In this document: piece after piece, positions 33,008 to 49,870 of the stretch
Layout: every line of letters begins with the position of its first letter
How positions within the stretch are numbered: the first letter of the stretch is position 1
Source of the DNA: a candidate division WOR-3 bacterium
Lineage (GTDB): Bacteria; Hydrothermota; Hydrothermia; LBFQ01; DSFT01
Assembly: GCA_025060695.1 (NCBI GenBank)
Contig: JANXBH010000001.1
Location: forward strand, 90,730 to 154,729
Reading direction: 5' to 3'
DNA: 64,000 bases
The notes under the pieces: model-generated
The model's database searches: none
Seen by the model: the letters and a program-made list of their open reading frames with translations, nothing else
What the model was told of the DNA's origin: nothing
Made by a program: the position numbers and the translations under genes

Positions 33008-33985
33008 CTAACATATAGGCTCGTACAGGTTTTTCTTTACACATTCCTTGAACTTGTTTACCCTTTCCAATCTTAAAACTTTCCTACTTTCAGCTGACTT
33101 AAATCTTTCAATCTCATAGTCCCTCCAAGGATTAAATTGCTTTAATGGCTCAACTGAAACAAAAGTCATATAACTACTTGCAACTTTATATCTTGTTGAA
33201 GTAAGTGGCTCTTCTTTTATTATTTTTACACCAACTTCAATAGAGCGATGACCTACATAGTTTATACCAAGGTAGAAATGCAAGATATCTCCAGTTCTTA
33301 CAGGACAAATAAAGTCAAACTCATCGATTGATGCAGTAAACGACGGGCTTTTCGCATACTGAACACTTAAAATTCCACCAAGCTCATCTAACTTCTCAAA
33401 CAAATAACCTGCAAACATTGTATTAGAATATATAGTTTCATATGGAAAAACAAGTTTTGCAGAATACAAACTATAGGTAGGGACTTTTGATGTATCTAAG
33501 TCATTTATGTCTAATTTTCTATTCTTTATCCTTTCTAATCTATACGCCCTTTTTTTAAGACCCCATTCGTATATTTGTTTTTCTTTTTCATCCTTTGGGA
33601 CAACTTTTATGTCTAGCTTTCTTGGTTTTCCGCTTTCATCCACTGCAACGTATCCAAAATGAGCAAGTGTGACTACTTTTAATTCATTATCCTTTGTTCT
33701 TTTAAATACAGTAACACCTACTTCTAAAGAACTATTAAAAGTTGCCTGCACTCTTGATCTAAAAATAAGTGTATCTCCACTATGTACAGGTTCTATAAAA
33801 TCTACGCTATCCATAGAGCCAATTACAACTGGTCCTTGTGCTACTTTATTTGCAGAAAGAAGACTTGCCTGACTTATAAGATATAACATTTTACCGCCAA
33901 ACATTGTATTTGCAGGATTTATAAAATAAGGAAACACATATTCGTATATTTCTATAACTGTATCAGAAATATTTATTTCCTTCAT
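33008..33985 (-). CDS. Double hotdog acyl-CoA thioesterase
   Basis: NPANTMFGG and NTMFAG repeats, SLEVGV/SIEVGV; ATG 33985 is 6 nt after the -10 box at 33992-33997. Confidence 0.88.
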   Translation of the reverse strand: MKEINISDTVIEIYEYVFPYFINPANTMFGGKMLYLISQASLLSANKVAQGPVVIGSMDSVDFIEPVHSGDTLIFRSRVQATFNSSLEVGVTVFKRTKDNELKVVTLAHFGYVAVDESGKPRKLDIKVVPKDEKEKQIYEWGLKKRAYRLERIKNRKLDINDLDTSKVPTYSLYSAKLVFPYETIYSNTMFAGYLFEKLDELGGILSVQYAKSPSFTASIDEFDFICPVRTGDILHFYLGINYVGHRSIEVGVKIIKEEPLTSTRYKVASSYMTFVSVEPLKQFNPWRDYEIERFKSAESRKVLRLERVNKFKECVKKNLYEPIC

Positions 33986-34565
33986 CTTCAAATTTTAAAC
34001 TTAGAAAATCTCTAAGCTTTTTTAATGCAATAGCTCTATGACTAATTTTATTTTTAACTTCCATTTCTATTTCCCCAAATGTTTTTCCAATTGGTTTATA
34101 GTAAAATATTGGGTCATAACCAAAACCTTTATCTCCTCTTATTTGAAAACCAATTTCACCCTCCACCTTTCCCTCAAATACATGGCTTTCACCGTTGTTA
34201 TTTATAAACACAATGACACAATGAAAATACGCACTTCTATTTTCTTTATCTTTCATAAGTTCTAAGATTTTTTCTAAATAGTCTGGATTTCCTTTTTGAA
34301 ACTCAGCTGAATGAACACCGGGAAAACCACCTAACGCCTCTATAAAAATACCAGAATCATCAGATATTACTGGCATTCCTGTTATTTCATGAACTTTCTT
34401 TGCCTTAATTAGTGCATTTTCTAATAGCGTCTTTCCAGTTTCCTCTATTTGAATATCTAAACTTATATCTTCCAAAGACAGAAATTCTATATCCTTAAAG
34501 TCCTTGAAAAAATTTTTAATTTCTTCTATTTTATGTTTATTTCTTGAAGAAATTAGAATTTTCAG
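33963..34565 (-). CDS. rdgB: Non-canonical purine NTP pyrophosphatase (CTG start)
   Basis: DDSG, GFGYDPIF, SHR; frame open upstream to CTG-AAA-ATT-CTA.. (KILISSRNKHK). Confidence 0.92.
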   Translation of the reverse strand: MKILISSRNKHKIEEIKNFFKDFKDIEFLSLEDISLDIQIEETGKTLLENALIKAKKVHEITGMPVISDDSGIFIEALGGFPGVHSAEFQKGNPDYLEKILELMKDKENRSAYFHCVIVFINNNGESHVFEGKVEGEIGFQIRGDKGFGYDPIFYYKPIGKTFGEIEMEVKNKISHRAIALKKLRDFLSLKFEDEGNKYF

Positions 34566-34568
34566 TAG

Positions 34569-34653
34569 TGGGCAGGGTAGGATTTGAACCTACGTAGGGC
34601 GTTAGCCCAGCAGGTTTACAGCCTGCCCCCGTTGGCCGCTTGGGTACCTGCCC
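34569..34653 (-). tRNA. tRNA-Tyr(GTA)
   Basis: GGGCAGG acceptor, GCAGG-CTGTAAA-CCTGC anticodon arm, long variable arm, GGTTCAAATCC; no CCA. Confidence 0.95.
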
Positions 34654-34657
34654 AAAA

Positions 34658-34730
34658 AGCCAGCGGGCGGACTCGAACCGCCGACCTGCTGATTACAAAT
34701 CAGCCGCTCTACCAACTGAGCTACGCTGGC
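34658..34730 (-). tRNA. tRNA-Thr(TGT)
   Basis: GCCAGCG acceptor, GCTGA-TTTGTAA-TCAGC, GGTTCGAGTCC; no CCA. Confidence 0.95.
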
Positions 34731-34734
34731 AAGG

Positions 34735-34750
34735 CTTTATAATTTTAAAG
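34735..34750. promoter_or_regulatory. Overlapping bidirectional -10 boxes CTTTATAATTTTAAAG
   Basis: Plus TATAAT 34738-34743 (8 nt to ATG 34752); minus TAAAAT 34742-34747 (11 nt to tRNA-Thr). Confidence 0.75.
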
Positions 34751-34751
34751 T

Positions 34752-37700
34752 ATGCTTACATTACTTTTTAACCTTTCGTTTTATTATAACGAGCAAAATA
34801 TTAAAAAACTTCCCATTCTATTTGAAGAAGGTTATCCACAAATTCCATATGACTATAGACTTATTGAAATTCCTGAAAATGCAAAGAATATAAAAATTAA
34901 AAACACTTACTACCAGAAAAGTTTATACCAGTCCAATGCTATTTTAAAATACAACGACAAGATATACTACTTTGATAGAACAGGAGCGTTAAAGACTATT
35001 GATATTCCAAGAATAAACATAGGAAATAGGTTTCCGAAATCTCCTATTGAAATAAGAAGTATTGGTTATTTCAGAGAAAAGAAATATGTTCTTGTTTTTA
35101 TCTATCCTATCGTTTATGAAAATGGAAATTTGTATTTAAATGAAGTTATTTCCTTTGATATTGAATATGAAGAAGAACAAAGGAACTATAGTATTAGACC
35201 ATTGCCCGATAGCTTGGACTATGCGATATTAACGATAAGTTTGTTAAAAGAGCCTTTCGATTCTATTGCGCACCTTTCAAGAATAAGAGGCTTTAGAACT
35301 GAAGTTTTTTTAGTAGATACTATAAAAGAAAATCCTGAGAAAATAAGAAACTTCATAATTGAGCTTTATAGAACATTTGGTATAAAATATTTACTAATTG
35401 GAGCGGATGCAAGTATAGTTAAGCCTTGGAGATTTCAAGTAAGTTTTTATGATGCCGATCAATCCTTTTTGACAGGTCCTGATGTCCATACGGACTATCC
35501 ATATTCCGCACTTGATGGAAACTATATAAATGGTAAAAAGTGGAAAATGGGAGATAGTGTAATAGACCCGTTTGCAGACATTGGCATAGGTAGATTACCT
35601 GTAATTAATACCTACGAAGTTTTTAACTACTATAGAAAATTAAAGGACTGGACATTTAACTTTCAAGGAAATACCAATAGCTTTGCTTGTCTTGAAAGTG
35701 AAATTGCACTTAACTACTTCGGTAATTATTGCGAACATATTGTATTAGCCTCCAATTTACCAAAAATCACAAGACTTTATGAACCTTTCTTCAATGGTCA
35801 ACTAACTCCTCAAATACTTTTTGACTCACTAAATACAAACAAACCACAATTTTTCTTCTATATAGGACATGCTAATGGTTTTTATATTGCGTCAAGCTAT
35901 GCAAATCCAACCTATTATGTAGGGATACAGGACTTCTATAATGCTTCTTTAAACTATAGTGCTCCATATATTGCGATGTTTGGAGGATGTTGGACAGGAG
36001 ACTTGGAACATACTGCACTCGTAAAGAACATACTTACTATGCCTGAAAGAGGTTCTATATTTTCTATTGGAGCAAGCAAACTTGATAATACAGGTTCTGA
36101 AACTGCAAGAGGTATGAATTTCTTTTACGCATTCAACAGTTATAATGCTAAAACAATAGGAGATGCATATTTGCATATGGTTATGGGATTTGCAGGCTCA
36201 CTATTTGGTGTATATTCTAAATTGAACATGTTCGGAGATCCTACTATTGAACCTTATTTCAATGGGAAAAATTACATTAGTGCAAACCATGACAATTCAT
36301 TTTCAGATTCGCTTATTATAAATACAATACCTAATGCAAGAGTTTTGCTATATGATGGAGAATTATATGTCTATACTAAATCTAACAATTCAGGTAAAGC
36401 AATTTTAAGATATAATAGTAATCAAGCGAAAACACTATTGCTCTCTATTTCAAAACCATCGCATATTCCATATTATACTTATGTAAACTACTATCCTTCA
36501 GAAGTTATATTAGATAGTATTTCACTAAATTCAAATTCTGTAATTCCGGGAAATACGTACGAATTGAAATTCTATCTTTCTAATATTAGTTCAAATAATA
36601 TAAATGTAAACTTTAAGGTAAAATTCAATAATGCTATTCCTGACAGTATAGTTCAAAACTTAGATTTTAGCCCTCAAGAAAGTCAAATTATTAGCTCAAC
36701 AATTACAATCAAACCTGATGCAAAGAACCTTTTAGTATCTATATTTATAAATAACAATCTGATTAAGAGATTCTCCTATATAGTGCAAAAACCTGAAATA
36801 AAGTTAGTTGGAGTAAAATGGGAAAATGATAGTATAGCCTTGGACATTTATAACAAATCAAATATTAATATATATAATATTGAACTGAAGTTCCTGTCCT
36901 CAAATGTAAGCAAAACACTTGATTCTATAAGTGCAAAATCCAATACTTCTTATACTACCAAATTACCAAGAATATCAAATAATCCAAAACTCGTAATATC
37001 TTACGCAGGGAAACAAGATACCTACAATTTAAACTACCAGCTTCCATTAAATCCTCCTCAATTTTACTTATTTCCAAGAAGAGAGGGTATATATATAACT
37101 TTTGATACTTTGGACAATAGCTCAAGGTTCTATAAAATTTACAGAGCAAAGAGTCCAAATGGAGAATATAAATTTATTGATATAACCAATGAACTCTCAA
37201 AACTACATATGGATTATGTAGATAGCTTTGAGTTTTACTATTACAAAATTTCAAGCTTAGATTTTTACTACAACGAAGGGTATATATCTAACTACAAATC
37301 TCAAATAAAGAGTCCAAACTATAGTATATATAGACCTACCTATTTACCACAGCAGGGAGAAGTTCCACCGATAATTGGGAAATTTAATAGTTTAGAACAA
37401 AACAAGCAAGTTTTAGTATTTTCACCGATTTATGCAAGTTTTTATAACCATCAAGGTATTAATTTTAATGACTATCCAAAAGAACTAAAATTTAGGGCAC
37501 TTTCAAGCGCTCTTTCAGACATTGATGGAGATGGAATAAATGAAGCAATAGTTTCAGCACAGAAAGATGGAAAGTCATTTCTACTATTGGTAAAATTAGA
37601 CAAAATTGATACTATATTTATATCAAACTATTGGGGTGATGTTTCAATATATAACAAAGGTTTAGTTATTGCTAACTTTATAGGTGATACACTTCCTGAG

Positions 37701-38897
37701 ATAGCACTTAAAACTTATTACTCTGACGGTAATAACTATAAACAAAGAATTATTATAATCGACCCAAGAACAGAGAGTATAGTAAATGAATTTAAGTATT
37801 TCAAAGGAAACGTATCAGCCAATTGGGATATATGTGCAAGTGATTTTGATTATGATAAGATGTATGAAGTAGTGTTTTTGGACTCAATGGGTTTTCTTCA
37901 TATTAAAAAAACAAACGGACAAAGTATAAATAATTTTCCAATTGATATAAAACCTTATCTTCCATCTTCAAATATTGATAACTTGGGTCAGTTTTCTTGT
38001 GCGATAGATGCCAAGAACAATAAAATAATATTAGGAAGTACGATGTCAGGAACACTTAACATCATTCTCATAAATGTGAATAGTGGAATGGTTGAGATGG
38101 TCCAAAGTATAAATCAATTTATAAATAATAATCCTATTGACAATTTTGCACTATCACTTGGAGACTTAGATAACAATCAAATACCAGAAATTATTCTAAT
38201 TACAAATCACAATTACTATCATTCAAAATACATACTTATTATTAAACAAAATGGTAGTTTACTTACAAAATTTACTGGTCCTGAAAAAGATTGGGTTTGG
38301 TATTCACCTGCAAGCATAGTAGATATATGGAATGACAACAAAATAGAGTTGGTAATTAGTCTTCCAAGAAGAGTATTTATACTAACTTATCAAGATAGTC
38401 TATTTCATAATTTTGGTTCACCTATATTACTTGCGGACGACACACTACCTGAAGGTTATCCATATTATTCACCTATATTTGAGGATATAGATAATAATAA
38501 CAAAGTAGAAATGTTCGTAATGCAGTTATCAAATCCCTTATACTCTTTTGATTTGGGAATAGCTGGGAAAATTCAATGGAATGGAAATAGAGCAAATCCT
38601 TTAAATACAGCGGAATGGGGGAAAAGAGAGTATACCACAGTGGAAGAAAAACTTTCTAACTATGTAAAGTTTAACTCCAAGTTATTCGCAATTGAATATA
38701 ACTTAATTAGAACTGAAAACTATGTGCTTAGAATTTATGATATTTCAGGAAGAGAAGTTTATGAAGACAAAGGAAATATAGAAGGAAAGGGTGTTTTGGA
38801 ACTTAGAAAATTAAAATTAAAGACTGGAATTTACATAGTAGATTTTCATTCGGATAATTATAAATTAAGGACAAAAGCCTTAAATCTTGGTTTATAA
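34752..38897 (+). CDS. C25 (gingipain-like) cysteine peptidase with FG-GAP repeats and T9SS-like C-terminal domain
   Basis: YLLIGAD, DIGIGRLP, catalytic GH..GGC, MFGDP, DIDGDG/DLDNN repeats, IYDISGREV..GIY. Confidence 0.85.
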   Translation: MLTLLFNLSFYYNEQNIKKLPILFEEGYPQIPYDYRLIEIPENAKNIKIKNTYYQKSLYQSNAILKYNDKIYYFDRTGALKTIDIPRINIGNRFPKSPIEIRSIGYFREKKYVLVFIYPIVYENGNLYLNEVISFDIEYEEEQRNYSIRPLPDSLDYAILTISLLKEPFDSIAHLSRIRGFRTEVFLVDTIKENPEKIRNFIIELYRTFGIKYLLIGADASIVKPWRFQVSFYDADQSFLTGPDVHTDYPYSALDGNYINGKKWKMGDSVIDPFADIGIGRLPVINTYEVFNYYRKLKDWTFNFQGNTNSFACLESEIALNYFGNYCEHIVLASNLPKITRLYEPFFNGQLTPQILFDSLNTNKPQFFFYIGHANGFYIASSYANPTYYVGIQDFYNASLNYSAPYIAMFGGCWTGDLEHTALVKNILTMPERGSIFSIGASKLDNTGSETARGMNFFYAFNSYNAKTIGDAYLHMVMGFAGSLFGVYSKLNMFGDPTIEPYFNGKNYISANHDNSFSDSLIINTIPNARVLLYDGELYVYTKSNNSGKAILRYNSNQAKTLLLSISKPSHIPYYTYVNYYPSEVILDSISLNSNSVIPGNTYELKFYLSNISSNNINVNFKVKFNNAIPDSIVQNLDFSPQESQIISSTITIKPDAKNLLVSIFINNNLIKRFSYIVQKPEIKLVGVKWENDSIALDIYNKSNINIYNIELKFLSSNVSKTLDSISAKSNTSYTTKLPRISNNPKLVISYAGKQDTYNLNYQLPLNPPQFYLFPRREGIYITFDTLDNSSRFYKIYRAKSPNGEYKFIDITNELSKLHMDYVDSFEFYYYKISSLDFYYNEGYISNYKSQIKSPNYSIYRPTYLPQQGEVPPIIGKFNSLEQNKQVLVFSPIYASFYNHQGINFNDYPKELKFRALSSALSDIDGDGINEAIVSAQKDGKSFLLLVKLDKIDTIFISNYWGDVSIYNKGLVIANFIGDTLPEIALKTYYSDGNNYKQRIIIIDPRTESIVNEFKYFKGNVSANWDICASDFDYDKMYEVVFLDSMGFLHIKKTNGQSINNFPIDIKPYLPSSNIDNLGQFSCAIDAKNNKIILGSTMSGTLNIILINVNSGMVEMVQSINQFINNNPIDNFALSLGDLDNNQIPEIILITNHNYYHSKYILIIKQNGSLLTKFTGPEKDWVWYSPASIVDIWNDNKIELVISLPRRVFILTYQDSLFHNFGSPILLADDTLPEGYPYYSPIFEDIDNNNKVEMFVMQLSNPLYSFDLGIAGKIQWNGNRANPLNTAEWGKREYTTVEEKLSNYVKFNSKLFAIEYNLIRTENYVLRIYDISGREVYEDKGNIEGKGVLELRKLKLKTGIYIVDFHSDNYKLRTKALNLGL

Positions 38898-38926
38898 ATA
38901 AACATATCCTTTATAATTTCAACACT

Positions 38927-39406
38927 ATGAAACTTTTAGGTTGGTCATTTGTATTAAGTCCTCTGGTAATTGGTGGCATTATGATGCCTTTCGCATGGCT
39001 ATCTTTGGCTAAAAAGACAAACGAGAATATTTACAAATGGGCAGGTATCTTCGGAATAATAACTATTGCTATTGCAATAATCTCGGCTCCTTTTCTATTC
39101 GTTTCACTATATGAATTCTTTACTAATAACTACTCAATCGAAGATCTCGCTAGCACGACGACTTTTCTATCACTTCTGGGTATTGCATCTATAGCAGGAA
39201 TTATCTACTTGGTTTTTACAATAATGTCACTCTTTAAGGTATCCCAAATACATAATGTTCAAAATTTAAAAAATCTCACAATTGCTCTTATTGTATGCCT
39301 TGTTTTAACTTTAATTCCATTCATAGGGTTTCTTGCCTCTATAGCTCTTATAGTAGTGTATGTTTTAATAGGAATTCAGATTCTTAATATTAAAGAAGCA
39401 CAATAG
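38927..39406 (+). CDS. Four-TM membrane protein (DUF996-like)
   Basis: Four hydrophobic helices; TATAAT 38912-38917 is 9 nt upstream. Confidence 0.6.
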   Translation: MKLLGWSFVLSPLVIGGIMMPFAWLSLAKKTNENIYKWAGIFGIITIAIAIISAPFLFVSLYEFFTNNYSIEDLASTTTFLSLLGIASIAGIIYLVFTIMSLFKVSQIHNVQNLKNLTIALIVCLVLTLIPFIGFLASIALIVVYVLIGIQILNIKEAQ

Positions 39407-39553
39407 CAGAAAAGCTTATTACAAAATTTTCCATATCAAAGTTCTTTGGACATTTTCTAGAGTTTTCTCTATTGTTATTCTACCTGATTTATCTGAATCT
39501 CACAACAGCTGTAATTCTTTTAGAAGTGTAGCAAATGCTGAAATATTATACTT

Positions 39554-40240
39554 TCAAAATATTTGAGCATTTTTAATCTCCAATATAACTTTGTTTATTG
39601 CTTCAACAGGGTCTTCAGAATTTGTAATAGCTCTCCCAATTACCAAAAAGTCAGCTCCATTCTTTATAGCCTCCCTCGGAGTTATTATTTGTTTTTGGTC
39701 ATTAGCTTTAGAATAAAATTCTAGTCTAACCCCAGGAACAATAGTTAGAAAATTTCTTCCAATTGTTTCCTTTATCTTTTTTACATATATTCCTGAAACT
39801 ACGACACCATCAAGACCACACTCTTTAGCTAAAAAACTTCTTTTAATAGTTAGAGCACTCATAGGCAAACTTATGCCTATATCCTTTAAATCTTCTTGAT
39901 TTAAACTAGTTAAAACAGTAACACCAAGTAATTTTATCCTATCAGTGCTTTCCCTTGCTGAGACTAACATATCCCTACCTCCTGAAACATGAAGTGTCAA
40001 ATAGTCAATATCAAAATTATTTAGAACCTTAATTGTCCTACTAACTGTATTTGGAATATCTTCTAATTTTAAATCTAAAAAAACGGTAGCACCCCTAATT
40101 TTTAAATATTCTATAACTTTAAAACCTTCTGCTGAAAAAAGCTCAAGTCCAACTTTATAGAGTTTGTGAATATCAATAGTTTTATCTACAAAAGACTTAA
40201 ATGATTTAAAATCACTAAAATCAAGAGCTATGAAAAACAC
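39554..40240 (-). CDS. pyrF: Orotidine-5'-phosphate decarboxylase
   Basis: IALD, KVG, DLKLEDIPNT, VTVLTS, PGVR, GRAIT. Confidence 0.96.
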   Translation of the reverse strand: MFFIALDFSDFKSFKSFVDKTIDIHKLYKVGLELFSAEGFKVIEYLKIRGATVFLDLKLEDIPNTVSRTIKVLNNFDIDYLTLHVSGGRDMLVSARESTDRIKLLGVTVLTSLNQEDLKDIGISLPMSALTIKRSFLAKECGLDGVVVSGIYVKKIKETIGRNFLTIVPGVRLEFYSKANDQKQIITPREAIKNGADFLVIGRAITNSEDPVEAINKVILEIKNAQIF

Positions 40241-40245
40241 ACAAA

Positions 40246-40276
40246 ATTTTAAAGTTATTAGCTTGTCCTTTAAAAT
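40246..40276. promoter_or_regulatory. Divergent -10 boxes (pyrF / tRNA-Ser pair)
   Basis: Minus box 40246-40251; plus box 40271-40276. Confidence 0.7.
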
Positions 40277-40289
40277 TGTAATACTTTTT

Positions 40290-40375
40290 GGAGGGGTGCG
40301 CCGAACTGGTAAGGCAGCGGATTTGAAATCCGCCGGGGCTTAGGCCCCTTAGGGGTTCGAGTCCCCTCCCCTCCG
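40290..40375 (+). tRNA. tRNA-Ser(TGA)
   Basis: GGAGGGG acceptor, GCGGA-TTTGAAA-TCCGC, long variable arm; no CCA. Confidence 0.95.
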
Positions 40376-40380
40376 TTTCT

Positions 40381-40472
40381 GGAGAGGTGGCCGAGCGGTC
40401 GAAGGCGGGGGCTTGCTAAGCCTTTTCTCAGGTTAAAAGCCTGAGACGAGGGTTCAAATCCCTCCCTCTCCG
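40381..40472 (+). tRNA. tRNA-Ser(GCT)
   Basis: GGAGAGG acceptor, GGGGC-TTGCTAA-GCCTT, long variable arm; no CCA. Confidence 0.95.
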
Positions 40473-40473
40473 C

Positions 40474-41712
40474 TTACAGTTTCTTTACTTTATAAATATA
40501 TGGATTTTCAGTAGCTTCTATGGTTTCATTATCTGAAAAAAGTTTTTCTTCCAGCTTTTCACCCTTTCTCAAGTCAGTAAAAATTATCTGAATATCTTTA
40601 TAAGGTTCATAACCGAGAAGCTTTAATAAGTTTTCAATTGCACTTCTAACATTTATCGGTTCTCCCATATCAAGAATAAGAATATCTCCACCATTTGAAA
40701 TAATTGGAGAATATAAGACTAACAAAACCGCTTCTTTCGGAGTTATAAAGTATCTCTTTGCATCTTTATGAGTAATTTTTACATAACCCTTTTGAACCTG
40801 TTTCAATATAGTAGGAATTAAACTTCCTCTTGAACCAATAACATTACCAAACCTTACCGCTATGTAATTATTTTCAATCACTAAATCCTCTGCTATACTT
40901 TTTGTCTTACCCATTATGCTTGTAGGCTCCACTGCCTTATCAGTGGATATAAATACAAATTTTTTAATACCATTCCTTTTTGAAAACTCTACTAATTTCT
41001 TAGTCCCAATGAAATTTACTTTATATGCCATATATTCAAAGTTTTCTAATATTGGAACATGTTTATATGCAGCACAATGAAATACTAAATCAATATGATT
41101 CTGAAAAACATCATAAAGACAATAATCATCAGTAATATCTCCAAGATAAATAATCAATCTATCATCATCTAAGTCATTTGACAATTCGTATAATCTGGTC
41201 TCATCTATATCCATAGCTATTACTTTTCTTACATTGAAATTTAGAACTTCCTTTACTAAATATGAACCAATTGAACCCGCTCCACCTGTTATTAAAATAT
41301 TTTTATTTTCATAAAATAGCTTTAAAGCTTCATAGTCTATCTGCATCTCTCTTTTTTTGAAAACGTCAAAAATATCAATTTCTACAACATGTTTTAAAAA
41401 TACTCTATCCTCCTTTACATAATAACTCGGCACAATCTTAATATCCTTAATACCTAATCTTAAAGAGAGCATTTCTATTTCTCTTATTCTTTGAATACTT
41501 GCAGAAGGCATAGCAATTATCAGACTATCTATATTCTTGAGTTTCCCAATAGAATTTATATCTCCAATTACTTTTATATTTTTATACTCTAAGTTCCACT
41601 TATTTTTATCGTCGTCCAAAAAACCAACTATTTTATAGTTTCCATTTTTCAATATATCATCTGCTACTTGTTTGCCTGCTTCTCCAAAACCATATATTAT
41701 AACTCTTTTCAT
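40474..41712 (-). CDS. Nucleotide-sugar dehydratase (CapD/PglF-like, lacking TM domain)
   Basis: GGAGSIGS, AAYKHVP, STDKAV, RFGNVIGSRGS, GEKLEE. Confidence 0.9.
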   Translation of the reverse strand: MKRVIIYGFGEAGKQVADDILKNGNYKIVGFLDDDKNKWNLEYKNIKVIGDINSIGKLKNIDSLIIAMPSASIQRIREIEMLSLRLGIKDIKIVPSYYVKEDRVFLKHVVEIDIFDVFKKREMQIDYEALKLFYENKNILITGGAGSIGSYLVKEVLNFNVRKVIAMDIDETRLYELSNDLDDDRLIIYLGDITDDYCLYDVFQNHIDLVFHCAAYKHVPILENFEYMAYKVNFIGTKKLVEFSKRNGIKKFVFISTDKAVEPTSIMGKTKSIAEDLVIENNYIAVRFGNVIGSRGSLIPTILKQVQKGYVKITHKDAKRYFITPKEAVLLVLYSPIISNGGDILILDMGEPINVRSAIENLLKLLGYEPYKDIQIIFTDLRKGEKLEEKLFSDNETIEATENPYIYKVKKL

Positions 41713-42664
41713 AACCTAAAACTCCTACAATTATAAAACATAAAAATGCTATCAACCATAGATAAATTTCATCAAGCTTATATGTAAGTATTGCTAATAC
41801 ACTAAAAAACAGCTGTAAAGTAGAAATTATGAAAACCGTCATAAATTTACCAAATCTTCTATATAGAATGTGATGTAAGTGTCTCTTATCTGAATAAAAT
41901 ATAGGATATTTAGAGAGAATTCTTCTAATGATTGTCCAAATGGTATCAAATATTGGTATTGAAAGAATAATAACAGGAACTATAGGATATATGGAATTTT
42001 TTCCTTGAGTTAGGAATAATGAAAATGAAGCGGACAGAAAACCAAGAGTAAGTGCTCCCACATCTCCCATAAACACTCTTGCAATTGGAAAATTAAAGAA
42101 AAGAAATCCAAGCAAAGCAGAAATTATCCCAATAGAAAAAATAAAAAGCTCGGTATTTCCTAAAATAGAGAAGAAATAAGAAAATGTTGAGAATATAATA
42201 ATACTAACTAAGGTTAATAATCCATCTAATCCATCAAGCATATTGAATGCATTTATAACACCAACAAAGCCAATAATAGTAATTACAAATCCAATAGCTG
42301 GATGTAAAACTACATCAAATCCAATAGTTTTTATACCATAACCTGATAGAAATATAAAACTTGCAGAAAAAAATTCAAATGTAAACTTTTGTGAAAAATG
42401 TAAATTAGCAATATCATCAAACAAACCTTCAAACACAATGATTAAAAGGGCAATTGTGAAAAGGGTCAATTTTTCTAATATATCTGTGAATAAGAAGGTT
42501 GATAGAATTATAGGAAGAATAAATCCAAGACCGCCAATTCTTGGAACTGGATAATTATGCATCTTTCTACCGTTTGGATAGTCATAAATCTTTAGTTTAT
42601 GCGAAATCTTTATGATAATTAATGTGAAAATTATTGAAAGTATTAAATTTATCAAAAATATCAT
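41657..42664 (-). CDS. WecA/TagO-like undecaprenyl-phosphate GlcNAc-1-P transferase
   Basis: PRIGG, NMLDGLDGL, FMGDVG, HLHH. Confidence 0.9.
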   Translation of the reverse strand: MIFLINLILSIIFTLIIIKISHKLKIYDYPNGRKMHNYPVPRIGGLGFILPIILSTFLFTDILEKLTLFTIALLIIVFEGLFDDIANLHFSQKFTFEFFSASFIFLSGYGIKTIGFDVVLHPAIGFVITIIGFVGVINAFNMLDGLDGLLTLVSIIIFSTFSYFFSILGNTELFIFSIGIISALLGFLFFNFPIARVFMGDVGALTLGFLSASFSLFLTQGKNSIYPIVPVIILSIPIFDTIWTIIRRILSKYPIFYSDKRHLHHILYRRFGKFMTVFIISTLQLFFSVLAILTYKLDEIYLWLIAFLCFIIVGVLGYEKSYNIWFWRSRQTSSR

Positions 42665-43428
42665 ATTTTTTTCATTCTGACAGTTTTTATTTTATATCCG
42701 TCTATCTCCAATATTTCAAAAACAAATCCATCCAACTCTATAGTATCTCCAACTTTTGGGACTTTGCCGAGTTTTTCCAAAAGAAGTCCTGAAAGTGTAG
42801 CATAAGTGCTATTAGGTTCAATTTCTATATTAACGCTAAAGTTTTCTTTTATAAATTCTGAAAATTCATCGATAGAAATGGAAGAGGATATTTTATATTC
42901 ATCGTCGGAAATTCTTACAATATCTGAAAATTCATATTCATTCTTTATATCACCTACTATTTCTTCTAATAAATCTTCCATAGTAACCATACCGATAACC
43001 ATACCATTCTCATCTACCACAAGTGCAATGGAGACTCGTTTTTCCCTTAAAAACTCTATGGCATCAATTATACTATAACTATATGGAATATAGTGAGCAG
43101 GTTTAGTTAATTTTCTTATAGTAGTTTCGTTCATCTTATCAATATTCCTTATTAAGTCCCTTATATAAAAAATACCTACAAACTCACTATCGTCATTTAC
43201 TACAGGATACTTTGTATAATTTAGATCCCTTATCTTTTCATACGCAAATGAGAGCAAGTTATTTTCATTCAAAGTTATAATAGATGACTTTGGTTTCATA
43301 GCCTTAAGTAAATTAGTTTCAGTTAACTTAATTAAATTTCTAATTAGTTTAGCAAATCGCTTATCTTTTTTGGCATATCTAAAAATTTTAAGTATGAAAC
43401 TAAGTCTTTTACCTAACGAACCTTCCAT
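42661..43428 (-). CDS. CBS-pair plus CorC/HlyC transporter-associated protein
   Basis: VVDENG..GMVTMEDLLEEIVGDI, TLSG..LGKVP..GD. Confidence 0.88.
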   Translation of the reverse strand: MEGSLGKRLSFILKIFRYAKKDKRFAKLIRNLIKLTETNLLKAMKPKSSIITLNENNLLSFAYEKIRDLNYTKYPVVNDDSEFVGIFYIRDLIRNIDKMNETTIRKLTKPAHYIPYSYSIIDAIEFLREKRVSIALVVDENGMVIGMVTMEDLLEEIVGDIKNEYEFSDIVRISDDEYKISSSISIDEFSEFIKENFSVNIEIEPNSTYATLSGLLLEKLGKVPKVGDTIELDGFVFEILEIDGYKIKTVRMKKI

Positions 43429-43429
43429 A

Positions 43430-44347
43430 CTAAGCTATCTGAAGCATTCTTCTAATTGGAATAGATGCTTTTTGAATAATCTCACTACTTAAATCTATCT
43501 CGTATTTCAGTTCTTTTAATGATAGAAAAACTTTTTCAAGTGTTATCATTTTCATGTATTTACATATAGCATTTTCATCTGCAGGTATAAACTCCTTTTG
43601 AGGACTTGCTTTTTTTAATGGATATAAAATACCTGTTTCAGTTACTACTATAAACTTATTACTTTTACTTTCCTTTGCATTTCTTATCATACCACTCGTA
43701 GAAAGGACTTTTACATTACCATTAAAATGATATAAACATTGGGTAGTGCATCCGCACTCAGGGTGAAGCATTACTTCCGCATCAGGGTTTTCTTCCATCT
43801 TTCTTAATAAATCTTCATATCTAAAACCTGCATGAACATGACATTCACCTGGCCAAATATGAATATTTTCTCTACCTGTTTGCTTTTTTATCCACATACC
43901 TAAATACATATCGGGCAAAAATAGTATTTCCTTATCTTCAGGTATAGATTGGATAACTCTTATTGCGTTAGAAGAGGTGCAACAATAATCACATTCAGTT
44001 TTAATATCCGCATTAGTATTTATATAACAAACAACTATCGCATTTGGATGCTCACTTTTCCATTTTCTTAGTTGTTCTAAATTTATTGAGTCAGCAAGTG
44101 AACAACCTGCATCTAAATCAGGTATTAAAACTTTCTTGTCTGGATTTAATATCTTAGCAGTTTCTGCCATAAACTTTACACCGCAAAATACTATAACGTT
44201 CGCATCTACTTGACTTGCCTTTCTTGAAAGTTCCAAACTATCTCCTACAAAATCCGCAATATCTTGAACTTCTGGGACTTGATAATTATGTGCTAAGATA
44301 ATTGCATTTCTTTCTTTTTTTAATTTTAATATCTCTTCTTTTAACAT
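43430..44347 (-). CDS. nadA: Quinolinate synthase
   Basis: LAHNYQ, GCSLAD, CHVH, HPEC, CKYMK; -10 box at 44355-44360. Confidence 0.95.
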   Translation of the reverse strand: MLKEEILKLKKERNAIILAHNYQVPEVQDIADFVGDSLELSRKASQVDANVIVFCGVKFMAETAKILNPDKKVLIPDLDAGCSLADSINLEQLRKWKSEHPNAIVVCYINTNADIKTECDYCCTSSNAIRVIQSIPEDKEILFLPDMYLGMWIKKQTGRENIHIWPGECHVHAGFRYEDLLRKMEENPDAEVMLHPECGCTTQCLYHFNGNVKVLSTSGMIRNAKESKSNKFIVVTETGILYPLKKASPQKEFIPADENAICKYMKMITLEKVFLSLKELKYEIDLSSEIIQKASIPIRRMLQIA

Positions 44348-44357
44348 CTATTAAATT

Positions 44358-44930
44358 TTAAAGGCTGTCATAAAGATTTTCTAATGCCTCTTTTCTAATT
44401 ACATTTCTTTCGAATTCTCCAAACTTTACCAAGACTTGATTGTTTAAAATCTTAAATACTAAGGCAATTGAAACAAATGGCTTTAGATATTCTAAAAACT
44501 TATATAAACTCGGATTAAAATTTAAAATACCTTCACTTTCGCTATGCAAAACTCCCTCAGGGAATATAAAAAAATAGTACTTTTGAGGATATGTATTTAG
44601 CAGTTCTATTGTTTTTCTCATTGAAATTATTTTTTCATGAGTAGTTTTAAATGGTAATACTTTTGCGAATTTTTCAAAATAAGGATAATTTCTATATTCC
44701 TCCATCCAAATAAGAATCTTCCTATCTTTCAAAATGGTTTTTCTCAGCCTATTTAATATATGAACATCGTAGTAGTAAAAATGGTTAGAATAGATAATAA
44801 TTTTTTGTTCCTTATATAAGCTAAACTCTGGTGCATTTAATACCTTAAATGACTTAAATCTACTTAGCTGACTCTCAAGAGTAAAATCTACTAAAAACTT
44901 TGGATAAAACTTTTTAAAATATTCTAACAT
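44358..44930 (-). CDS. Lysophospholipid acyltransferase-like protein
   Basis: NHFYYYD (HX4D) and FPEG motifs. Confidence 0.7.
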   Translation of the reverse strand: MLEYFKKFYPKFLVDFTLESQLSRFKSFKVLNAPEFSLYKEQKIIIYSNHFYYYDVHILNRLRKTILKDRKILIWMEEYRNYPYFEKFAKVLPFKTTHEKIISMRKTIELLNTYPQKYYFFIFPEGVLHSESEGILNFNPSLYKFLEYLKPFVSIALVFKILNNQVLVKFGEFERNVIRKEALENLYDSL

Positions 44931-45744
44931 TAATGTATCTACTCGGATTTTTCTTTATATCTTCAATTAATTCTTGAACTTTCTTTATGGAAGATTTTAA
45001 TTCTAAATATAGTGAATCACTTTGGGTTAATTTGCCTACAGTTCCTCTATATCTAATACTATCAACTTCAATTTTTATTTTATCTATCAACGAGTCTATA
45101 GAATTTAAAGTTAGTCTTCCAGCACTTATTAATGAATTTACATTGTGCCAAGTACTATCTAAATTCTCATTTTGATTATCAACGAGATATTTTACTTTAT
45201 ATACAAGACTATTTAAATTATTTAAAGATGTTTTCAGTTCGGAGGATATAATAATAATCTCGCTATTAGTAGACTTTACTAAATTATTGACATTTGATAA
45301 AATAGTATCAACTTTATCGTATAACTTTAAAACAATGTTCATTACTTCATCAAAGGATGGACTATCGTATCCAACTATAGTATCGTTCATGTTTAAAAAT
45401 TCACCATTTCCTGGTTCAATATCAATTAGCCTATTACCAAGTGCTGAAGGAGAAATAATCTGAGCATAAGCATTTTTTCTTAACCTATAGTCCTTTAATC
45501 CAAATTTTACTATTACAAAATTCTCTTTAATTTCAACACTGATGACACTACCTATTGGAACTCCTTTCACTAAAACTCTTGTCCCGGGTGATATTAATGT
45601 CGCTCTTGGGAGCTTTATATAATAGGTATAATTATGTTTTTGTCTCTTTTGAGTACTTATCCAATTATATCCAATAAAAAAAGCGACTAACATAACTAAG
45701 ACAAAAATTCCTACTTTTATATAATCTAATCTATTAACTTCCAT
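44914..45744 (-). CDS. MlaD/MCE family protein
   Basis: N-terminal TM, V.VKGVPIG.V, LG..IDIEPG, DIKKNPSRY. Confidence 0.88.
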   Translation of the reverse strand: MEVNRLDYIKVGIFVLVMLVAFFIGYNWISTQKRQKHNYTYYIKLPRATLISPGTRVLVKGVPIGSVISVEIKENFVIVKFGLKDYRLRKNAYAQIISPSALGNRLIDIEPGNGEFLNMNDTIVGYDSPSFDEVMNIVLKLYDKVDTILSNVNNLVKSTNSEIIIISSELKTSLNNLNSLVYKVKYLVDNQNENLDSTWHNVNSLISAGRLTLNSIDSLIDKIKIEVDSIRYRGTVGKLTQSDSLYLELKSSIKKVQELIEDIKKNPSRYINVRIF

Positions 45745-46915
45745 ATACCTCTAATATCATGCTTGCACCCATACCTCCACCTACACAAGCACTAACTATA
45801 CCATAACCACCACCTCTTTTTCTTAATTCATGTATTAATTTCGTTGTTAAAATAGCACCAGTTGCACCAAGTGGATGTCCAAGCGATATTGCTCCACCAT
45901 TTACATTTAACTTCTCCAACGGTATGGGTAGTTCTCTTAATACCGCAATAACTTGTGTAGCAAATGCTTCATTTAGTTCAATAAGCTTTATATCATCTAA
46001 TTTTAAGTTTGCTTTTCGTAATGACTTTGGAATAGCATATGCGGGTGCTATGCCCATTATTTCCGCAGGAACCCCAACAACTTGAAATGTAATAAATCTT
46101 GCAAGTGGCTTTAAACCAAGTTCTTTAGCTTTTCTCTCACTCATCATTAAAACCGCACTTGCACCATCACTCCTTTGAGAAGCATTACCTGCTGTAACAG
46201 TCCCATCTACCTTAAAATATGGTTTTAAACTCAGAAGTCCCTCTAATGTAGTATCTGGTCTTGGACATTCATCATGTTCAAAAATTTTTTCAATTAATTG
46301 ACTATTTCCATCTTCATCTTCTATTCTAACTTTCACTTTTATTGGGACAATTTCTTCTTTAAATTTTCCACTTAATACTGCCTGAGCTCCTCTTGTGTGA
46401 GATAAATATGCAAATTCGTCTACTTCCCTTCTTGTAATATTATAAATAGGAACTAAGTTTTCCGCAGTTAGTCCCATATTTAAATAGTAGTGTGGAAAAT
46501 TTTGAGCAACATATGGCTCAGGTCTAAATTTATAACCCGGCATAGGAACTAAACTCATATTTTCAACACCACCCGCTATTGCAACATCTATTTCACCAAC
46601 TATAATCCTATGAGCAGTCTGAGCTATAGTTTGTATAGATGATGCACAGTATCTATTAACTGTTACAGCAGGAATTGAGTTTGGAAGCCCTGCTCTGTAA
46701 ATTACTGTTCTTGCAAGGTTCATACCCTGATATGCCTCAGGAAACGCACATCCAATAGACACGTCTTCTATTATATATGGTTCTATTTTCGTTTCATCCA
46801 ATATAGCTTTAATTACTTCAGATAGTAGATATTCTGGTCTTGTGTCCTTTAGTGTTCCTTTAATTGCTTTTCCTATAGCTGTTCGCTTTGCACTAACAAT
46901 TACAGCGTTGTTCAC
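45734..46915 (-). CDS. Acetyl-CoA C-acyltransferase (thiolase)
   Basis: NRYCASS, NEAFA, GHPLGATG, CVGGGMG. Confidence 0.95.
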   Translation of the reverse strand: MNNAVIVSAKRTAIGKAIKGTLKDTRPEYLLSEVIKAILDETKIEPYIIEDVSIGCAFPEAYQGMNLARTVIYRAGLPNSIPAVTVNRYCASSIQTIAQTAHRIIVGEIDVAIAGGVENMSLVPMPGYKFRPEPYVAQNFPHYYLNMGLTAENLVPIYNITRREVDEFAYLSHTRGAQAVLSGKFKEEIVPIKVKVRIEDEDGNSQLIEKIFEHDECPRPDTTLEGLLSLKPYFKVDGTVTAGNASQRSDGASAVLMMSERKAKELGLKPLARFITFQVVGVPAEIMGIAPAYAIPKSLRKANLKLDDIKLIELNEAFATQVIAVLRELPIPLEKLNVNGGAISLGHPLGATGAILTTKLIHELRKRGGGYGIVSACVGGGMGASMILEVYGS

Positions 46916-46922
46916 AACTGAA

Positions 46923-46946
46923 AGTTTAAAGTAGATGCTTTAAAAT
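46923..46946. promoter_or_regulatory. Divergent -10 boxes (thiolase / tRNA-Val)
   Basis: Minus TAAACT 46923-46928 (7 nt to GTG 46915); plus TAAAAT 46941-46946 (11 nt to tRNA). Confidence 0.7.
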
Positions 46947-46957
46947 TTTGGAAAATT

Positions 46958-47031
46958 GGGCGGGTAGCTCAGCTGGTGAGAGCGCTGCCCTTACAAGGCA
47001 GAGGTCAGAGGTTCAAGTCCTCTCCCGCCCA
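46958..47031 (+). tRNA. tRNA-Val(TAC)
   Basis: GGGCGGG acceptor, CTGCC-CTTACAA-GGCAG, GGTTCAAGTCC; no CCA. Confidence 0.95.
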
Positions 47032-47033
47032 TA

Positions 47034-47699
47034 ATAAAATATATTATCATTGTCCCAACTTATAATGAATTTCCTAAGATAATCCAAACAATTGAAAATC
47101 TAAAAAACTATAATTACGATGTATTATTCATAGATGATGGATCAAGCGATGGAACATTTGAAGTTATTAAAAGTTCTGGTTTTAAATATATAAAAAATCA
47201 AAAAAATTTTGGAAAGGGTTATAGTATAAAAAGGGGTTTAGAATATGCTATCTTAAATAACTATCAAGTAGTAATCACATTAGATGCGGATGGACAACAT
47301 CCAATAGAATACATTCCGAAATTCATAGAGAAGATTCAAAACTACGATATTGTTATTGGTTCAAGAAGAAAACTTATGCATCCAAAAAATATGCCATTTG
47401 ATAGGTATATTTCCAATAGACTAAACTCTTCAATTGTTTCAATTTTTTGCAATAAAATTATACCAGATGCACTCTGTGGCTATAGGGCAATTAGAACCAA
47501 GATTTTAAAGGATATTAACTTTAATTGTAATAGATTTGAATTTGAAATAGAGTTCATAGTAAAAGCTTGTAAATATGGATTTAGTATTGGATTCTTAGAT
47601 ATACCTTTAATTTATAAGGATGAAAAAAGCCATATAAGAAAAGTCTTAGATACATTAAGAGTAATGAAATTATACTTCAGCTTTATCTTGTTTTCTTAG
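47034..47699 (+). CDS. GT2 glycosyltransferase (DPM1-like), ATA start
   Basis: Frame open 114 codons upstream of the track start: (M)KYIIIVPTYNE..IDDGSSDGT..GKG..DADGQH. Confidence 0.9.
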   Translation: MKYIIIVPTYNEFPKIIQTIENLKNYNYDVLFIDDGSSDGTFEVIKSSGFKYIKNQKNFGKGYSIKRGLEYAILNNYQVVITLDADGQHPIEYIPKFIEKIQNYDIVIGSRRKLMHPKNMPFDRYISNRLNSSIVSIFCNKIIPDALCGYRAIRTKILKDINFNCNRFEFEIEFIVKACKYGFSIGFLDIPLIYKDEKSHIRKVLDTLRVMKLYFSFILFS

Positions 47700-47724
47700 T
47701 TATAGCTTTAAACTTTAGGGCTTT

Positions 47725-48681
47725 ATGAAAACATTGGAATATCTTATTAATTTTGAAGGCAAGATATGTCTTATTGCACATAGTAATCCCGACCCTGATT
47801 GTATTGGGAGTATGTTAGCACTATATAATTACCTTAATAAGTTTAATAAAGATGTTATTATGATTTCAAAAGACGAGCCTATAGGAACTATAAAATATTT
47901 AAAAGGTTTTGACAAAATAATTAGAATAGGGAATTTACCTGAGACGGATTTATACGTACTAATTGACCAGTCTGAAGTGGAAAGAAGCGGAATAAATCCA
48001 GAGGAATTTAAAGATAAAAACATAATAAAAATTGACCATCATATTACAAATAAAAAATATAGTGAATATGACTATATAGATGAAAATGCTCCATCAACAA
48101 CTTCATTAATGTTAGAACTTATGAGAAACTACAATGAAGAATTAATAGATGAAAATATAGCTGAGTGTATATTCGTAGGCTTGTCAGCAGATACAGGAAA
48201 CTTTTCGTTCTCTAATTTAAAAGTAGCATTTGAAAATGCTCTATATTTAGCAAATAGGGGATTTAATATAAATAGATTTTCTGAGAAGTTTTTAAGAAAT
48301 CAGTCCATAAATAGAATGGAGTTAATAAGATTAGCACTATCTACATTAAGGTATGAAGATAACATTGGATATATTATAATAAGAAAAAAATTTTATGAAA
48401 TTTCAGGAGCAAAGAAATATGAAAATTATGGAATAGTAGATATTCCTTTATCTTTAAGTAATGTGAAAGTTGCTCTGAAATTTGAAGAAATGGAAAATGG
48501 CTGGAAAGTGAATTTAAGAAGTAAAGAAAATATTGATGTTCAGAAATTTGCTGAAAAGCACAATGGTGGTGGTCATAAAAATGCATCCGCTTTTAGAATT
48601 AATGAGAAAATTCCTGAAAGTGAACTTATAGAGCGTATTATTGAAGATTTGAAAAACTACTTAAAAACTATTCATGAATAA
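47725..48681 (+). CDS. nrnA: DHH phosphoesterase (NrnA, nanoRNase/PAP phosphatase)
   Basis: HSNPDPDCIGS, IDHH, DTGNF, GGGH; TAAACT at 47709-47714. Confidence 0.9.
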   Translation: MKTLEYLINFEGKICLIAHSNPDPDCIGSMLALYNYLNKFNKDVIMISKDEPIGTIKYLKGFDKIIRIGNLPETDLYVLIDQSEVERSGINPEEFKDKNIIKIDHHITNKKYSEYDYIDENAPSTTSLMLELMRNYNEELIDENIAECIFVGLSADTGNFSFSNLKVAFENALYLANRGFNINRFSEKFLRNQSINRMELIRLALSTLRYEDNIGYIIIRKKFYEISGAKKYENYGIVDIPLSLSNVKVALKFEEMENGWKVNLRSKENIDVQKFAEKHNGGGHKNASAFRINEKIPESELIERIIEDLKNYLKTIHE

Positions 48682-49795
48682 TAGCTTTGATTTCTTTTAT
48701 TTCTTCGCCATTTTTAACATTTAAAACTTCTAATAGTCTATCAAGGTCATTGTTAAGAAATTCATAAATAAAGCGAATAATATTTTTAAAGTTTCTGTCA
48801 GTTAATTGTTTTAACTCATTATAGCTAATACTTCTTAAATGAAAGAGCATAATTTTGGAAAAGAAATCAATAATATTTAAGTTATAATCCTTTTCAAAGA
48901 AAGCTTTTATGTGAATAGGTAAATTTTTAAACTTTAAAAGTTTTTTCTCAATTGATAGTGCATATCTAATAGCATTTTCTATCTCACTAAAATTTCCAAA
49001 CCAAGGATAAGTTAAGTACGCTCTATAAAAGTCCTCTTCAATTTCTACCATTTCATTCGTAATATTTCTTAAAAAGTGCTCTAATATAAGTAGTTTCTCT
49101 TTATGGTTTCTTTCAGAGATAGATGGTATATAGATTGATGGTACTGTAGAAAGATTTATAGGTGGAGAGATATTGTCCGTAATGAATACAATTCTTCCTT
49201 TCTTTTTATATATACTATTTACAGCAAAATTAAATTCAAGAATACTTTCAAATAGGTCTATATTCATTATAATTATTGACTTAGTCTTTTCTTTTTCTTT
49301 TCTAAAACCCACTTCCTTTTCCTCAATTTCAAAATAGTCTACTGCTCTATCTCCAATTATAGAGCGTATAATTGTATATTTACCAACACCCCTTTGACCA
49401 TATATCAAAATCCAAGGTTCATACTCACTATTTAGTAGTATTTCAAGTTTTCTATATATGTCATCTGTTTTTCCATAATAGCAAACAAAGTTTACATTTG
49501 CAGGCTTTAAATCGTTTATAGCATAGTATTTATTATAAAATTCTATCATTCTTTGTCTAATAGTTTTTTTTGAATAGACTTCAAGAAAGTTATTTAAATC
49601 ATCTTCGTTTTCAAAAGAATAGTCTATAGTTTGTAAGTTAGAAGAGCCTATAGTTATAGTTGTAAAATTCAGAGATATTTCATACAGTTCCTTGTAATTA
49701 TTATCAGCAATTACAACGTCTGGGAATTCATCTATGTTTACTTGATTGTAGCTTTCCTTTATTTTAATATTTTTAGATAAATTAAGAATTTTCAA
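48668..49795 (-). CDS. Degenerate sigma54-interaction (NtrC-like AAA+) protein
   Basis: LIYGQRGVGK and YPWFGNFSEIENAI; track start lies inside tRNA-Gly, so start moved to TTG 49795. Confidence 0.65.
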   Translation of the reverse strand: MKILNLSKNIKIKESYNQVNIDEFPDVVIADNNYKELYEISLNFTTITIGSSNLQTIDYSFENEDDLNNFLEVYSKKTIRQRMIEFYNKYYAINDLKPANVNFVCYYGKTDDIYRKLEILLNSEYEPWILIYGQRGVGKYTIIRSIIGDRAVDYFEIEEKEVGFRKEKEKTKSIIIMNIDLFESILEFNFAVNSIYKKKGRIVFITDNISPPINLSTVPSIYIPSISERNHKEKLLILEHFLRNITNEMVEIEEDFYRAYLTYPWFGNFSEIENAIRYALSIEKKLLKFKNLPIHIKAFFEKDYNLNIIDFFSKIMLFHLRSISYNELKQLTDRNFKNIIRFIYEFLNNDLDRLLEVLNVKNGEEIKEIKAIIHE

Positions 49796-49798
49796 AAG

Positions 49799-49870
49799 AG
49801 CGAGCGACGGGACTTGAACCCGCAACCCCCAGCTTGGAAGGCTGGCGCTCTACCGTTGAGCTACGCTCGC
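49799..49870 (-). tRNA. tRNA-Gly(TCC)
   Basis: GCGAGCG acceptor, CCAGC-CTTCCAA-GCTGG, GGTTCAAGTCC; no CCA. Confidence 0.95.

Follow-up and report, generated by a model that had tools for sequence, protein, structure and literature searches.

Bacterial tRNA and protein genes may share one transcript, as in thrU-tyrU-glyT-thrT-tufB, metY-nusA-infB and secG-leuU, and start codons ATA and ATT are used in mitochondria. In the transcripts of animal mitochondria, tRNAs serve as punctuation (available sections of PMC10941002). By analogy, the E. coli toxin MazF is a bacterial precedent for cleavage-made leaderless mRNA since, in the accessible part of PMC5001579, an endonucleolytic cut just before the start codon yields a translatable message. 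Here we describe tRNA-gene junctions in a 64,000-nt stretch (the window) of a candidate division WOR-3 bacterium (assembly GCA_025060695.1, contig JANXBH010000001.1, positions 90,730 to 154,729), in which three protein genes start 2-3 nt after the discriminator base of a tRNA. We consider this architecture to be real, conserved and genome-wide, and a mechanism by which an endonuclease, not canonical RNase Z, would free near-leaderless mRNAs at the discriminator to be probable.

The architecture shares with mitochondrial punctuation tRNAs that lack an encoded CCA and abut coding sequences without a promoter or Shine-Dalgarno (SD) sequence, CCA-family enzymes, a protein-only RNase P (HARP), short or absent leaders, and ATA or ATT starts. 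Unlike in mitochondria, it occurs on a bacterial chromosome as about 30 separate promoter-tRNA-gene units, the tRNA mostly heading the unit, and it covers only about 2-3% of genes, SD initiation persisting inside operons. In addition, no completion of stop codons by polyadenylation is apparent, and the RNase Z that makes the 3′ cut in the mitochondrial model was not found. It shares with the bacterial co-transcripts a tRNA and a protein gene on one transcript, but these elsewhere keep a long leader with an SD sequence, as do rpmG and rplS in relatives of this lineage.

The three junctions had been described in an earlier note made from the letters of the window, and its reading of them was accurate. 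The discriminators fall at 34569 (tRNA-Tyr, minus strand), 47031 (tRNA-Val, plus strand) and 49799 (tRNA-Gly, minus strand), as determined with Rfam and a T-loop-anchored check of the acceptor stem, and they are followed by CTA and the CTG start at 34565, by TA and the ATA start at 47034, and by CTT and the TTG start at 49795, respectively. None of the six tRNAs in the window encodes CCA. The N-terminal motifs begin immediately, the Pfam profiles matching from residue 3 for Ham1p (model position 1) and from residue 5 for the glycosyltransferase GT2 (model position 2). The fourth tRNA unit, a tRNA-Ser pair, does meet a convergent gene: it ends at 40472, and a single base separates it from that gene's stop codon. 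The features are as follows, with position weight matrix (PWM) scores for the hexamers.

34742..34747, minus strand: -10 hexamer TAAAAT (lineage motif CTTTAAAAT) heading the tRNA-Thr/tRNA-Tyr/rdgB unit (PWM 16.1)
34658..34730, minus strand: tRNA-Thr(TGT), CCA-less
34569..34653, minus strand: tRNA-Tyr(GTA), CCA-less, discriminator A34569
34566..34568, minus strand: 3-nt spacer CTA, the predicted leader after a cut at the discriminator
33963..34565, minus strand: rdgB (Ham1/ITPase family), CTG start, Pfam PF01725 from residue 3
33992..33997, minus strand: -10 hexamer serving the following gene from within the rdgB tail (PWM 12.7)
40271..40476, plus strand: promoter, tRNA-Ser pair, a single base, then the convergent gene's stop codon (contrast case)
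40290-40375, plus strand: tRNA-Ser(TGA)
40381-40472, plus strand: tRNA-Ser(GCT)
46941..46946, plus strand: -10 hexamer heading the tRNA-Val/GT2/DHH unit (PWM 16.7)
46958..47031, plus strand: tRNA-Val(TAC), CCA-less, discriminator A47031
47032..47033, plus strand: 2-nt spacer TA
47034..47699, plus strand: GT2 glycosyltransferase, ATA start (PF00535)
47719..48681, plus strand: DHH/DHHA1 protein (NrnA-like), second gene of the Val unit, given as a stop-to-stop frame with the start not fixed
49881..49886, minus strand: -10 hexamer heading the tRNA-Gly unit (PWM 16.7)
49799..49870, minus strand: tRNA-Gly(TCC), CCA-less, discriminator U49799
49796..49798, minus strand: 3-nt spacer CTT
48668..49795, minus strand: sigma54-activator-like AAA+ protein, TTG start (PF25601, Atlas neighbours)

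Because the gene after rdgB has its own -10 hexamer within the rdgB tail, only rdgB depends on the tRNA transcript. At 34738-34747, -10 elements on opposite strands overlap, one for tRNA-Thr and one for a divergent gene of the C25-peptidase family that starts at 34752.

The close spacing extends to the whole genome (G000; 1.50 Mb, 30% GC, 94.9% complete), which occurs in hot-spring metagenomes, no RNA sample being listed among the sequencing runs that contain it. Close homologues of one of its proteins carry the label candidate division WOR-3, and NCBI now gives Hydrothermia as class Caldifarciminia. ARAGORN identified 45 tRNAs, of which one on a small contig (C56) was set aside as a likely contaminant. 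CCA is not encoded in 43 of the 44 tRNAs analysed, the sole exception being Lys-CTT. Their 3′ neighbours are same-strand protein genes (30), tRNAs (7), convergent genes (6) and an rRNA-operon context (1). When the distance from each tRNA to the next coding sequence was tabulated, the start codon lay 0-5 nt past the discriminator in 23 of the 30 co-directional neighbours (22 NTG codons and the ATA of GT2), about two being expected by chance, and four more start at 6-9 nt, which brings 27 of the 30 within 0-9 nt. Of the remaining three, two start at 15 nt and (by eye) 25 nt and have a promoter of their own, and one, a glnA-like gene, starts at 78 nt and has an 8-nt SD sequence. In-frame NTG codons at 0-5 nt (22/30) compare with an expectation of about 6%, given a rate of 3.1% NTG per codon (p ~1e-20), and the enrichment persists (p 1e-12) if the background is set to 15%. 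In the antisense control, none of 19 divergent genes starts ≤20 nt from the 5′ boundary of a tRNA. The tRNA-adjacent genes include some which, from their N-terminal sequences, we take to be rplS, rpmE, rpmG, mdh, ndk and prs.

While the earlier note was right about close spacing, its leaders of 2-3 nt do not hold as a fixed length, since the spacing is loose (0-9 nt) and varies between congeners. Orthologous spacers drift within this range, for example 6 vs 1 nt for mdh and 9 vs 3 nt for prs, so that the rule is closeness to the tRNA end rather than any particular length. Part of the closeness is accounted for by compaction. The genome is tightly packed: its most frequent gene junction is a -4 overlap, and overlaps between convergent genes are common. 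The weight of the case therefore lies not on spacing but on the loss of promoter and SD sequence together with a conserved start.

With regard to promoters, the CTTTAAAAT motif was found 482 times in the genome, and in 201 cases a long frame has its ATG 6-11 nt downstream of the hexamer. SD-like matches precede none of 84 promoter-proximal ATG starts, compared with 197 of the 454 starts inside operons and 19% of control methionines, and the anti-SD of the 16S rRNA is intact. With transcription starts inferred from motif positions, promoter-led first genes appear to be leaderless or nearly so, and internal genes appear to use SD sequences or coupling; ribosomes that handle such first genes would likely accept near-leaderless 5′ ends made by tRNA processing as well. 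This main first-gene route, in which a -10 hexamer precedes the start by 6-11 nt and an SD is lacking, is like that in the available portions of the accounts of Deinococcus deserti (PMC4007540) and mycobacteria (PMC4633059). Unlike in those portions, the tRNA-adjacent genes here are promoterless and their 5′ ends would be processed, and half of them start with TTG, CTG or ATA, codons barely used in those organisms.

The earlier note's statement that there is no room for a promoter or SD sequence is borne out genome-wide. Promoter scores at 26 scored tRNA-adjacent starts range from -16 to -46 (the 5th percentile of the training set being 9.6), an SD-like 4-mer is present at only 2 of 26 vs the 19% background, and these genes are also without an upstream ribosome. 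It is extremely improbable that a promoter hidden in the 3′ half of the tRNA gives rise to an ordinary leaderless mRNA. In one congener the 3′ end of tRNA-Gly(CCC) does overlap the CTTTAAAAT motif, though the start there is 13 nt away; at spacers of 0-5 nt, however, the hexamer would have to occupy the GC-rich T and acceptor stems, where scores are -29 or lower, and an internal promoter was rejected on these scores. The start codons of tRNA-adjacent genes are non-ATG in 15 of 27 cases (all TTG, CTG or ATA) vs 58 of 259 at promoters (p 7e-4), and thus are not limited to AUG and GUG as in the leaderless bacteria. Relaxed start choice through loss of IF3 was rejected, as IF3 is present in 18 of 19 genomes.

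The three window junctions are conserved in the genus. In all five genomes rdgB starts 3-4 nt behind tRNA-Tyr (with CTG, TTG, GTG, CTG and CTG), while 25 rdgB loci of other genera have no tRNA at that place; an RdgB search of named genomes gave distant matches only. Similarly, GT2 starts 2-3 nt behind tRNA-Val in all five, with ATA here and ATA, ATA, ATT and ATT in the congeners, at the position where the sister genus has ATG. The TTG of the AAA+ gene lies at 3, 7, 8 and 8 nt in the genus (here and in three congeners) and at 4 nt in the sister genus. These data bear on the alternative that the true starts lie downstream and that closeness reflects compaction only. Such packing is indeed seen throughout the genome (the -4 and convergent overlaps above), but family motifs begin immediately, the position of the start is conserved while its codon swaps among CTG, TTG and GTG or among ATA, ATT and ATG, and a promoter would still be lacking. 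We therefore give this alternative very little credence.

For a wider view we sampled seven relatives, with 20 tRNA-bearing stretches each (23-31 of about 45 tRNAs, best-scoring first); as these are kin, the counts are descriptive. The earlier note had made its proposal depend on the spacing being conserved in relatives, and starts at 0-5 nt were found for 13 of 19 in a congener (G004) and 14 of 17 in a member of the sister family (G009). The latter obeys the rule with different genes, such as an ahcY-like gene that starts 1 nt past tRNA-Val. Such starts are scarce elsewhere: 2 of 18 in the sister genus (G005) and 0/13, 0/17, 0/18 and 1/11 in four other families, with a third genus intermediate (5/18 tRNAs). 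In G005 and G006, a -10 element belonging to the protein gene itself often lies between the tRNA and the start codon. The spacers of tRNA-Trp-rpmG and tRNA-Gly-rplS are longer and mostly bear an SD in other genera; here, spacer and SD are lost. This comparison of sequences suggests that spacers were deleted in a lineage whose first genes were leaderless beforehand, the layout probably having arisen when compaction removed the spacer and, with it, the SD or the gene's own promoter.

The mechanism that we propose would act on one transcript covering both a tRNA gene and the protein start codon, the tRNA lying between that codon and the promoter. HARP would trim the 5′ end of the tRNA and two CCA-family enzymes would add CCA, as expected from the gene content. 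A cut at or just after the discriminator, by a candidate enzyme other than canonical RNase Z, would leave a 5′-phosphate mRNA with a leader of 0-9 bases, which would be translated by 5′-end-dependent initiation via the organism's leaderless route. The weak TTG, CTG, ATA and ATT starts may damp output from strong tRNA promoters, the ribosomal-protein, mdh and ndk genes keeping ATG. RNAs cut at the discriminator would resemble those made from promoters, and we therefore favour endonucleolytic release and consider it reasonably probable. The MazF system differs from the proposed one in being stress-induced and sequence-specific, with 5′-hydroxyl ends and altered ribosomes in the available part of its description; the process here would be constitutive and tRNA-guided, and the anti-SD is intact.

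The placement of tRNAs is relevant to how the precursor is handled. The CTTTAAAAT motif is upstream of 32 of the 44 tRNAs, and three of the 44, Glu(CTC), Val(CAC) and Gly(CCC), are placed between genes without a promoter of their own. The cleanest gene-tRNA-gene case is tRNA-Glu(CTC) (G000:C10 13623-13697), which has a stop codon 5 nt before it, the ATG of rpmE 2 nt after it and no promoter. At tRNA-Val(CAC) (G000:C75 56361-56434) and tRNA-Gly(CCC) (C33 84496-84567), where there is likewise no promoter upstream, the preceding genes run 10 nt into the tRNA and stop at U8-A9-G10, and the same read-in at tRNA-Gly(CCC) is apparent (by eye) in G004. A pyrimidine (T or C) comes directly after the discriminator of 41 of 44 tRNAs here and of 172 of 186 tRNAs in relatives, irrespective of the downstream neighbour; it may reflect the preference of a nuclease.

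Several observations weigh against release at the discriminator. Convergent genes stop 1, 1, 4, 5 and 6 nt past tRNA ends, with one overlap, and tRNA-tRNA spacers are 2-5 nt (seven cases); these distances are as short as those to start codons, so that spacing alone is no proof of a tuned leader length. As the tRNA supplies the upstream gene's stop at two promoterless tRNAs, its excision would leave a non-stop mRNA, and in these two places at least, translation must take place on uncut precursors. In mycobacteria and E. coli, UUG and CUG serve poorly as leaderless starts, according to the accessible parts of PMC4633059 and PMC4007540, so the ribosomes of this lineage would have to be more permissive. 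RNase Z, J, E/G, PH and YloC were not found (see below). Lastly, HARP is reported to cut 3′ trailers at least 13 nt past nt 72 (available sections of PMC12217051), which here would fall inside genes and remove start codons.

Some of these points would be met if tRNA and mRNA came from different copies of the transcript. Initiation would then take place on the uncut precursor by melting of the acceptor stem (through heat or bS1), without punctuation, and on the tRNA side HARP or RNase Y would cut inside the gene, with RNB exonucleases or PNPase trimming back to the discriminator and destroying that mRNA copy. The start codon of the uncut precursor would lie only 1-6 nt from the acceptor helix upstream of it. 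Opening the start region would cost 8-16 kcal/mol at 37 °C, which counts in favour of release at the discriminator, and only 1-9 at 70 °C (nine modelled cases, no tertiary structure), in keeping with initiation on the precursor. Also in its favour are the read-in at tRNA-Val(CAC) and tRNA-Gly(CCC), the distant HARP cut at +13 or more, and the enzymes present: RNase R in 41/41 genomes, a second RNB paralog order-wide, RNase Y and PNPase, with no RNase Z. A precedent is the RNase R of M. genitalium, which trims tRNA in one exonucleolytic step (available part of PMC4014445), but it involves CCA-encoding tRNAs. Moreover, three starts directly abut the discriminator without an SD, which we infer should block ribosome loading, and spacers match promoter-derived leader lengths and never settle in the 10-20 nt range, used by other families, that would ease internal entry. 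We consider this explanation the main rival but rather unlikely, and retain endonucleolytic release at the discriminator as the favoured one.

The earlier note had assigned the cut to RNase Z, and this step of its mechanism fails. TIGR02651 exceeded its cut-off in none of 41 genomes (9 of 14 controls), and the best match in G000 resembles a PqsE-type thioesterase. Matches in families f3 and f8 skip model positions about 150-200 and are below the cut-off. PF13691 was found in none of 16 members of the order among 61 genomes scanned, with matches in family f3 only; a search with PF12706 over five genomes gave no RNase Z, and by profile search the enzyme was not found in any of 19 genomes of the order. 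That a canonical RNase Z makes the cut, but lies outside the assembly or is too divergent for detection, would agree with the 94.9% completeness, with 43 of 44 tRNAs being CCA-less and with the +1 pyrimidine in 41 of 44. Nevertheless, the negative searches across the order and a scan of all frames ≥40 aa in G000 make this very improbable: the scan gave six HxHxDH-like matches, of which four belong to other types of metallo-β-lactamase (MBL) protein (glyoxalase-II-like, PqsE-like, YtnP-like and a 224-aa Lactamase_B_2/B_3 protein).

Other candidate nucleases were also sought. Searches of five genomes gave neither RNase J nor RNase E/G, RNase PH was found in none of four family genomes, G000 being included in each set, and YloC was rejected as the cutter (0/19 genomes). 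RNase Y, PNPase, Rho, RNase R and the second RNB enzyme are present, as is YbeY, by motif. A second, shorter RNB (RNase II-like) gene, a candidate tRNA-trimming exonuclease, is in the window at 5309-6871 (plus strand). The earlier note's expectation of CCA-adding enzymes, as opposed to that of RNase Z, is supported by two PolyA_pol-family nucleotidyltransferases, putative CC- or A-adding enzymes that are below the NCBIfam cut-offs. A Rae1/YacP-like NYN nuclease (G000:C66 7274-7708) is present in 9 of 19 genomes, including all five of the genus; it is absent from G005, found weakly in three of five genomes of g4 and in none of seven of g3. We regard it as a possible processing enzyme, a lead only. 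A DEDD exonuclease in 18 of 19 genomes may be DnaQ. No motif match was obtained for RNase III, RNase HII, Nudix, IF1, YhaM or PHP, where the patterns were strict, so that this is no evidence of absence. Under either leading explanation, 43 CCA-less tRNAs without a recognisable RNase Z, J, E/G or PH leave an enzyme gap.

HARP (PF08745, E 4e-37) is the only RNase P found in G000. In the family, HARP is present with rnpA in 0/7 and rnpB in 0/3 genomes; the sister family has rnpA in 12/12 and no HARP. The HARP gene (G000:C22 about 7720-8252, minus strand; locus L220) follows tRNA-Lys(TTT) as second of the protein genes in that unit, before a gene for an obg-like GTPase. The acidic catalytic motifs of its PIN_5 domain are spread over two frames, the frame changing at a run of nine A (A9) after about 35 codons in G000, G002 and G004 (3/5 congeners), so that the short frame encodes the first catalytic aspartate. 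A single intact frame is present in G001, G003, G005 and G006, and an intact relative (P0001) matches the PDB structure of RNA-free RNase P at E 1e-32. No indel is seen at the A9 in the public contigs of two other sequencing runs, of which one belongs to a different study, and several database clusters begin at the frameshift point. A9 is the longest homopolymer in G000 (16 runs), most others seeming to be in frame. In these three genomes HARP would be made by transcript slippage or -1 frameshifting. HARP itself was rejected as the general releasing enzyme, as the cut published for it lies too far downstream and the trait also occurs in the sister family, which has an RNA-based RNase P and no HARP.

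As in the available sections on Aquificaceae (PMC12217051, PMC10941002), HARP is the only RNase P found, there are two tRNA nucleotidyltransferases and RNase Z is uncertain. This lineage differs in phylum, in encoding almost no CCA (36/44 tRNAs encode it in Aquifex, in those sections), in having no RNase G or PH, and in its HARP gene being frameshifted in 3/5 congeners. A broader but tentative proposal from the sequences is that the order evolved mitochondrion-style tRNA punctuation as a routine source of mRNA 5′ ends, combining a non-RNase Z 3′ endonuclease, ribosomes that start at UUG, CUG, AUA and AUU and, in one genus, an A9-throttled HARP. The programmed A9 frameshift would then limit the mRNA-destroying +13 side cut of HARP.

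Four further observations concern tRNA contexts. The rho gene is apparently the third protein gene behind two tRNA-Met genes (G000:C44 34551-37318), with no promoter match between. tRNA-Leu(CAG) (G000:C55 88369-88454) is overlapped by the end of a same-strand gene for 54 nt and of a convergent gene for 35 nt. Only one tRNA, Ala(CGC), follows the 16S rRNA (L001 about 1372-1444; G000:C8 30506-30578), an unusual content for an rRNA spacer, with Ile(GAT) and Ala(TGC) elsewhere. ARAGORN also called a tRNA with anticodon TTA, which would read a stop codon, at L115 (G020:C2 225300-226400); it may be a pseudogene or false call.

A literature search, most subscription papers and supplements lying outside it, found no description of bacterial tRNA punctuation or of leaderless translation in WOR-3. 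Gene callers probably misplace CTG, TTG, ATA and ATT starts and truncate the frameshifted HARP. HARP-only maturation of tRNA 5′ ends is extended beyond Aquificaceae, and the defined tRNA-gene junctions are ready substrates for finding the 3′-processing activity. If the proposed release of mRNAs at the discriminator is true, tRNA punctuation would extend from mitochondria to a free-living bacterium, which would provide a model for the origin of punctuation through compaction and leaderless translation.

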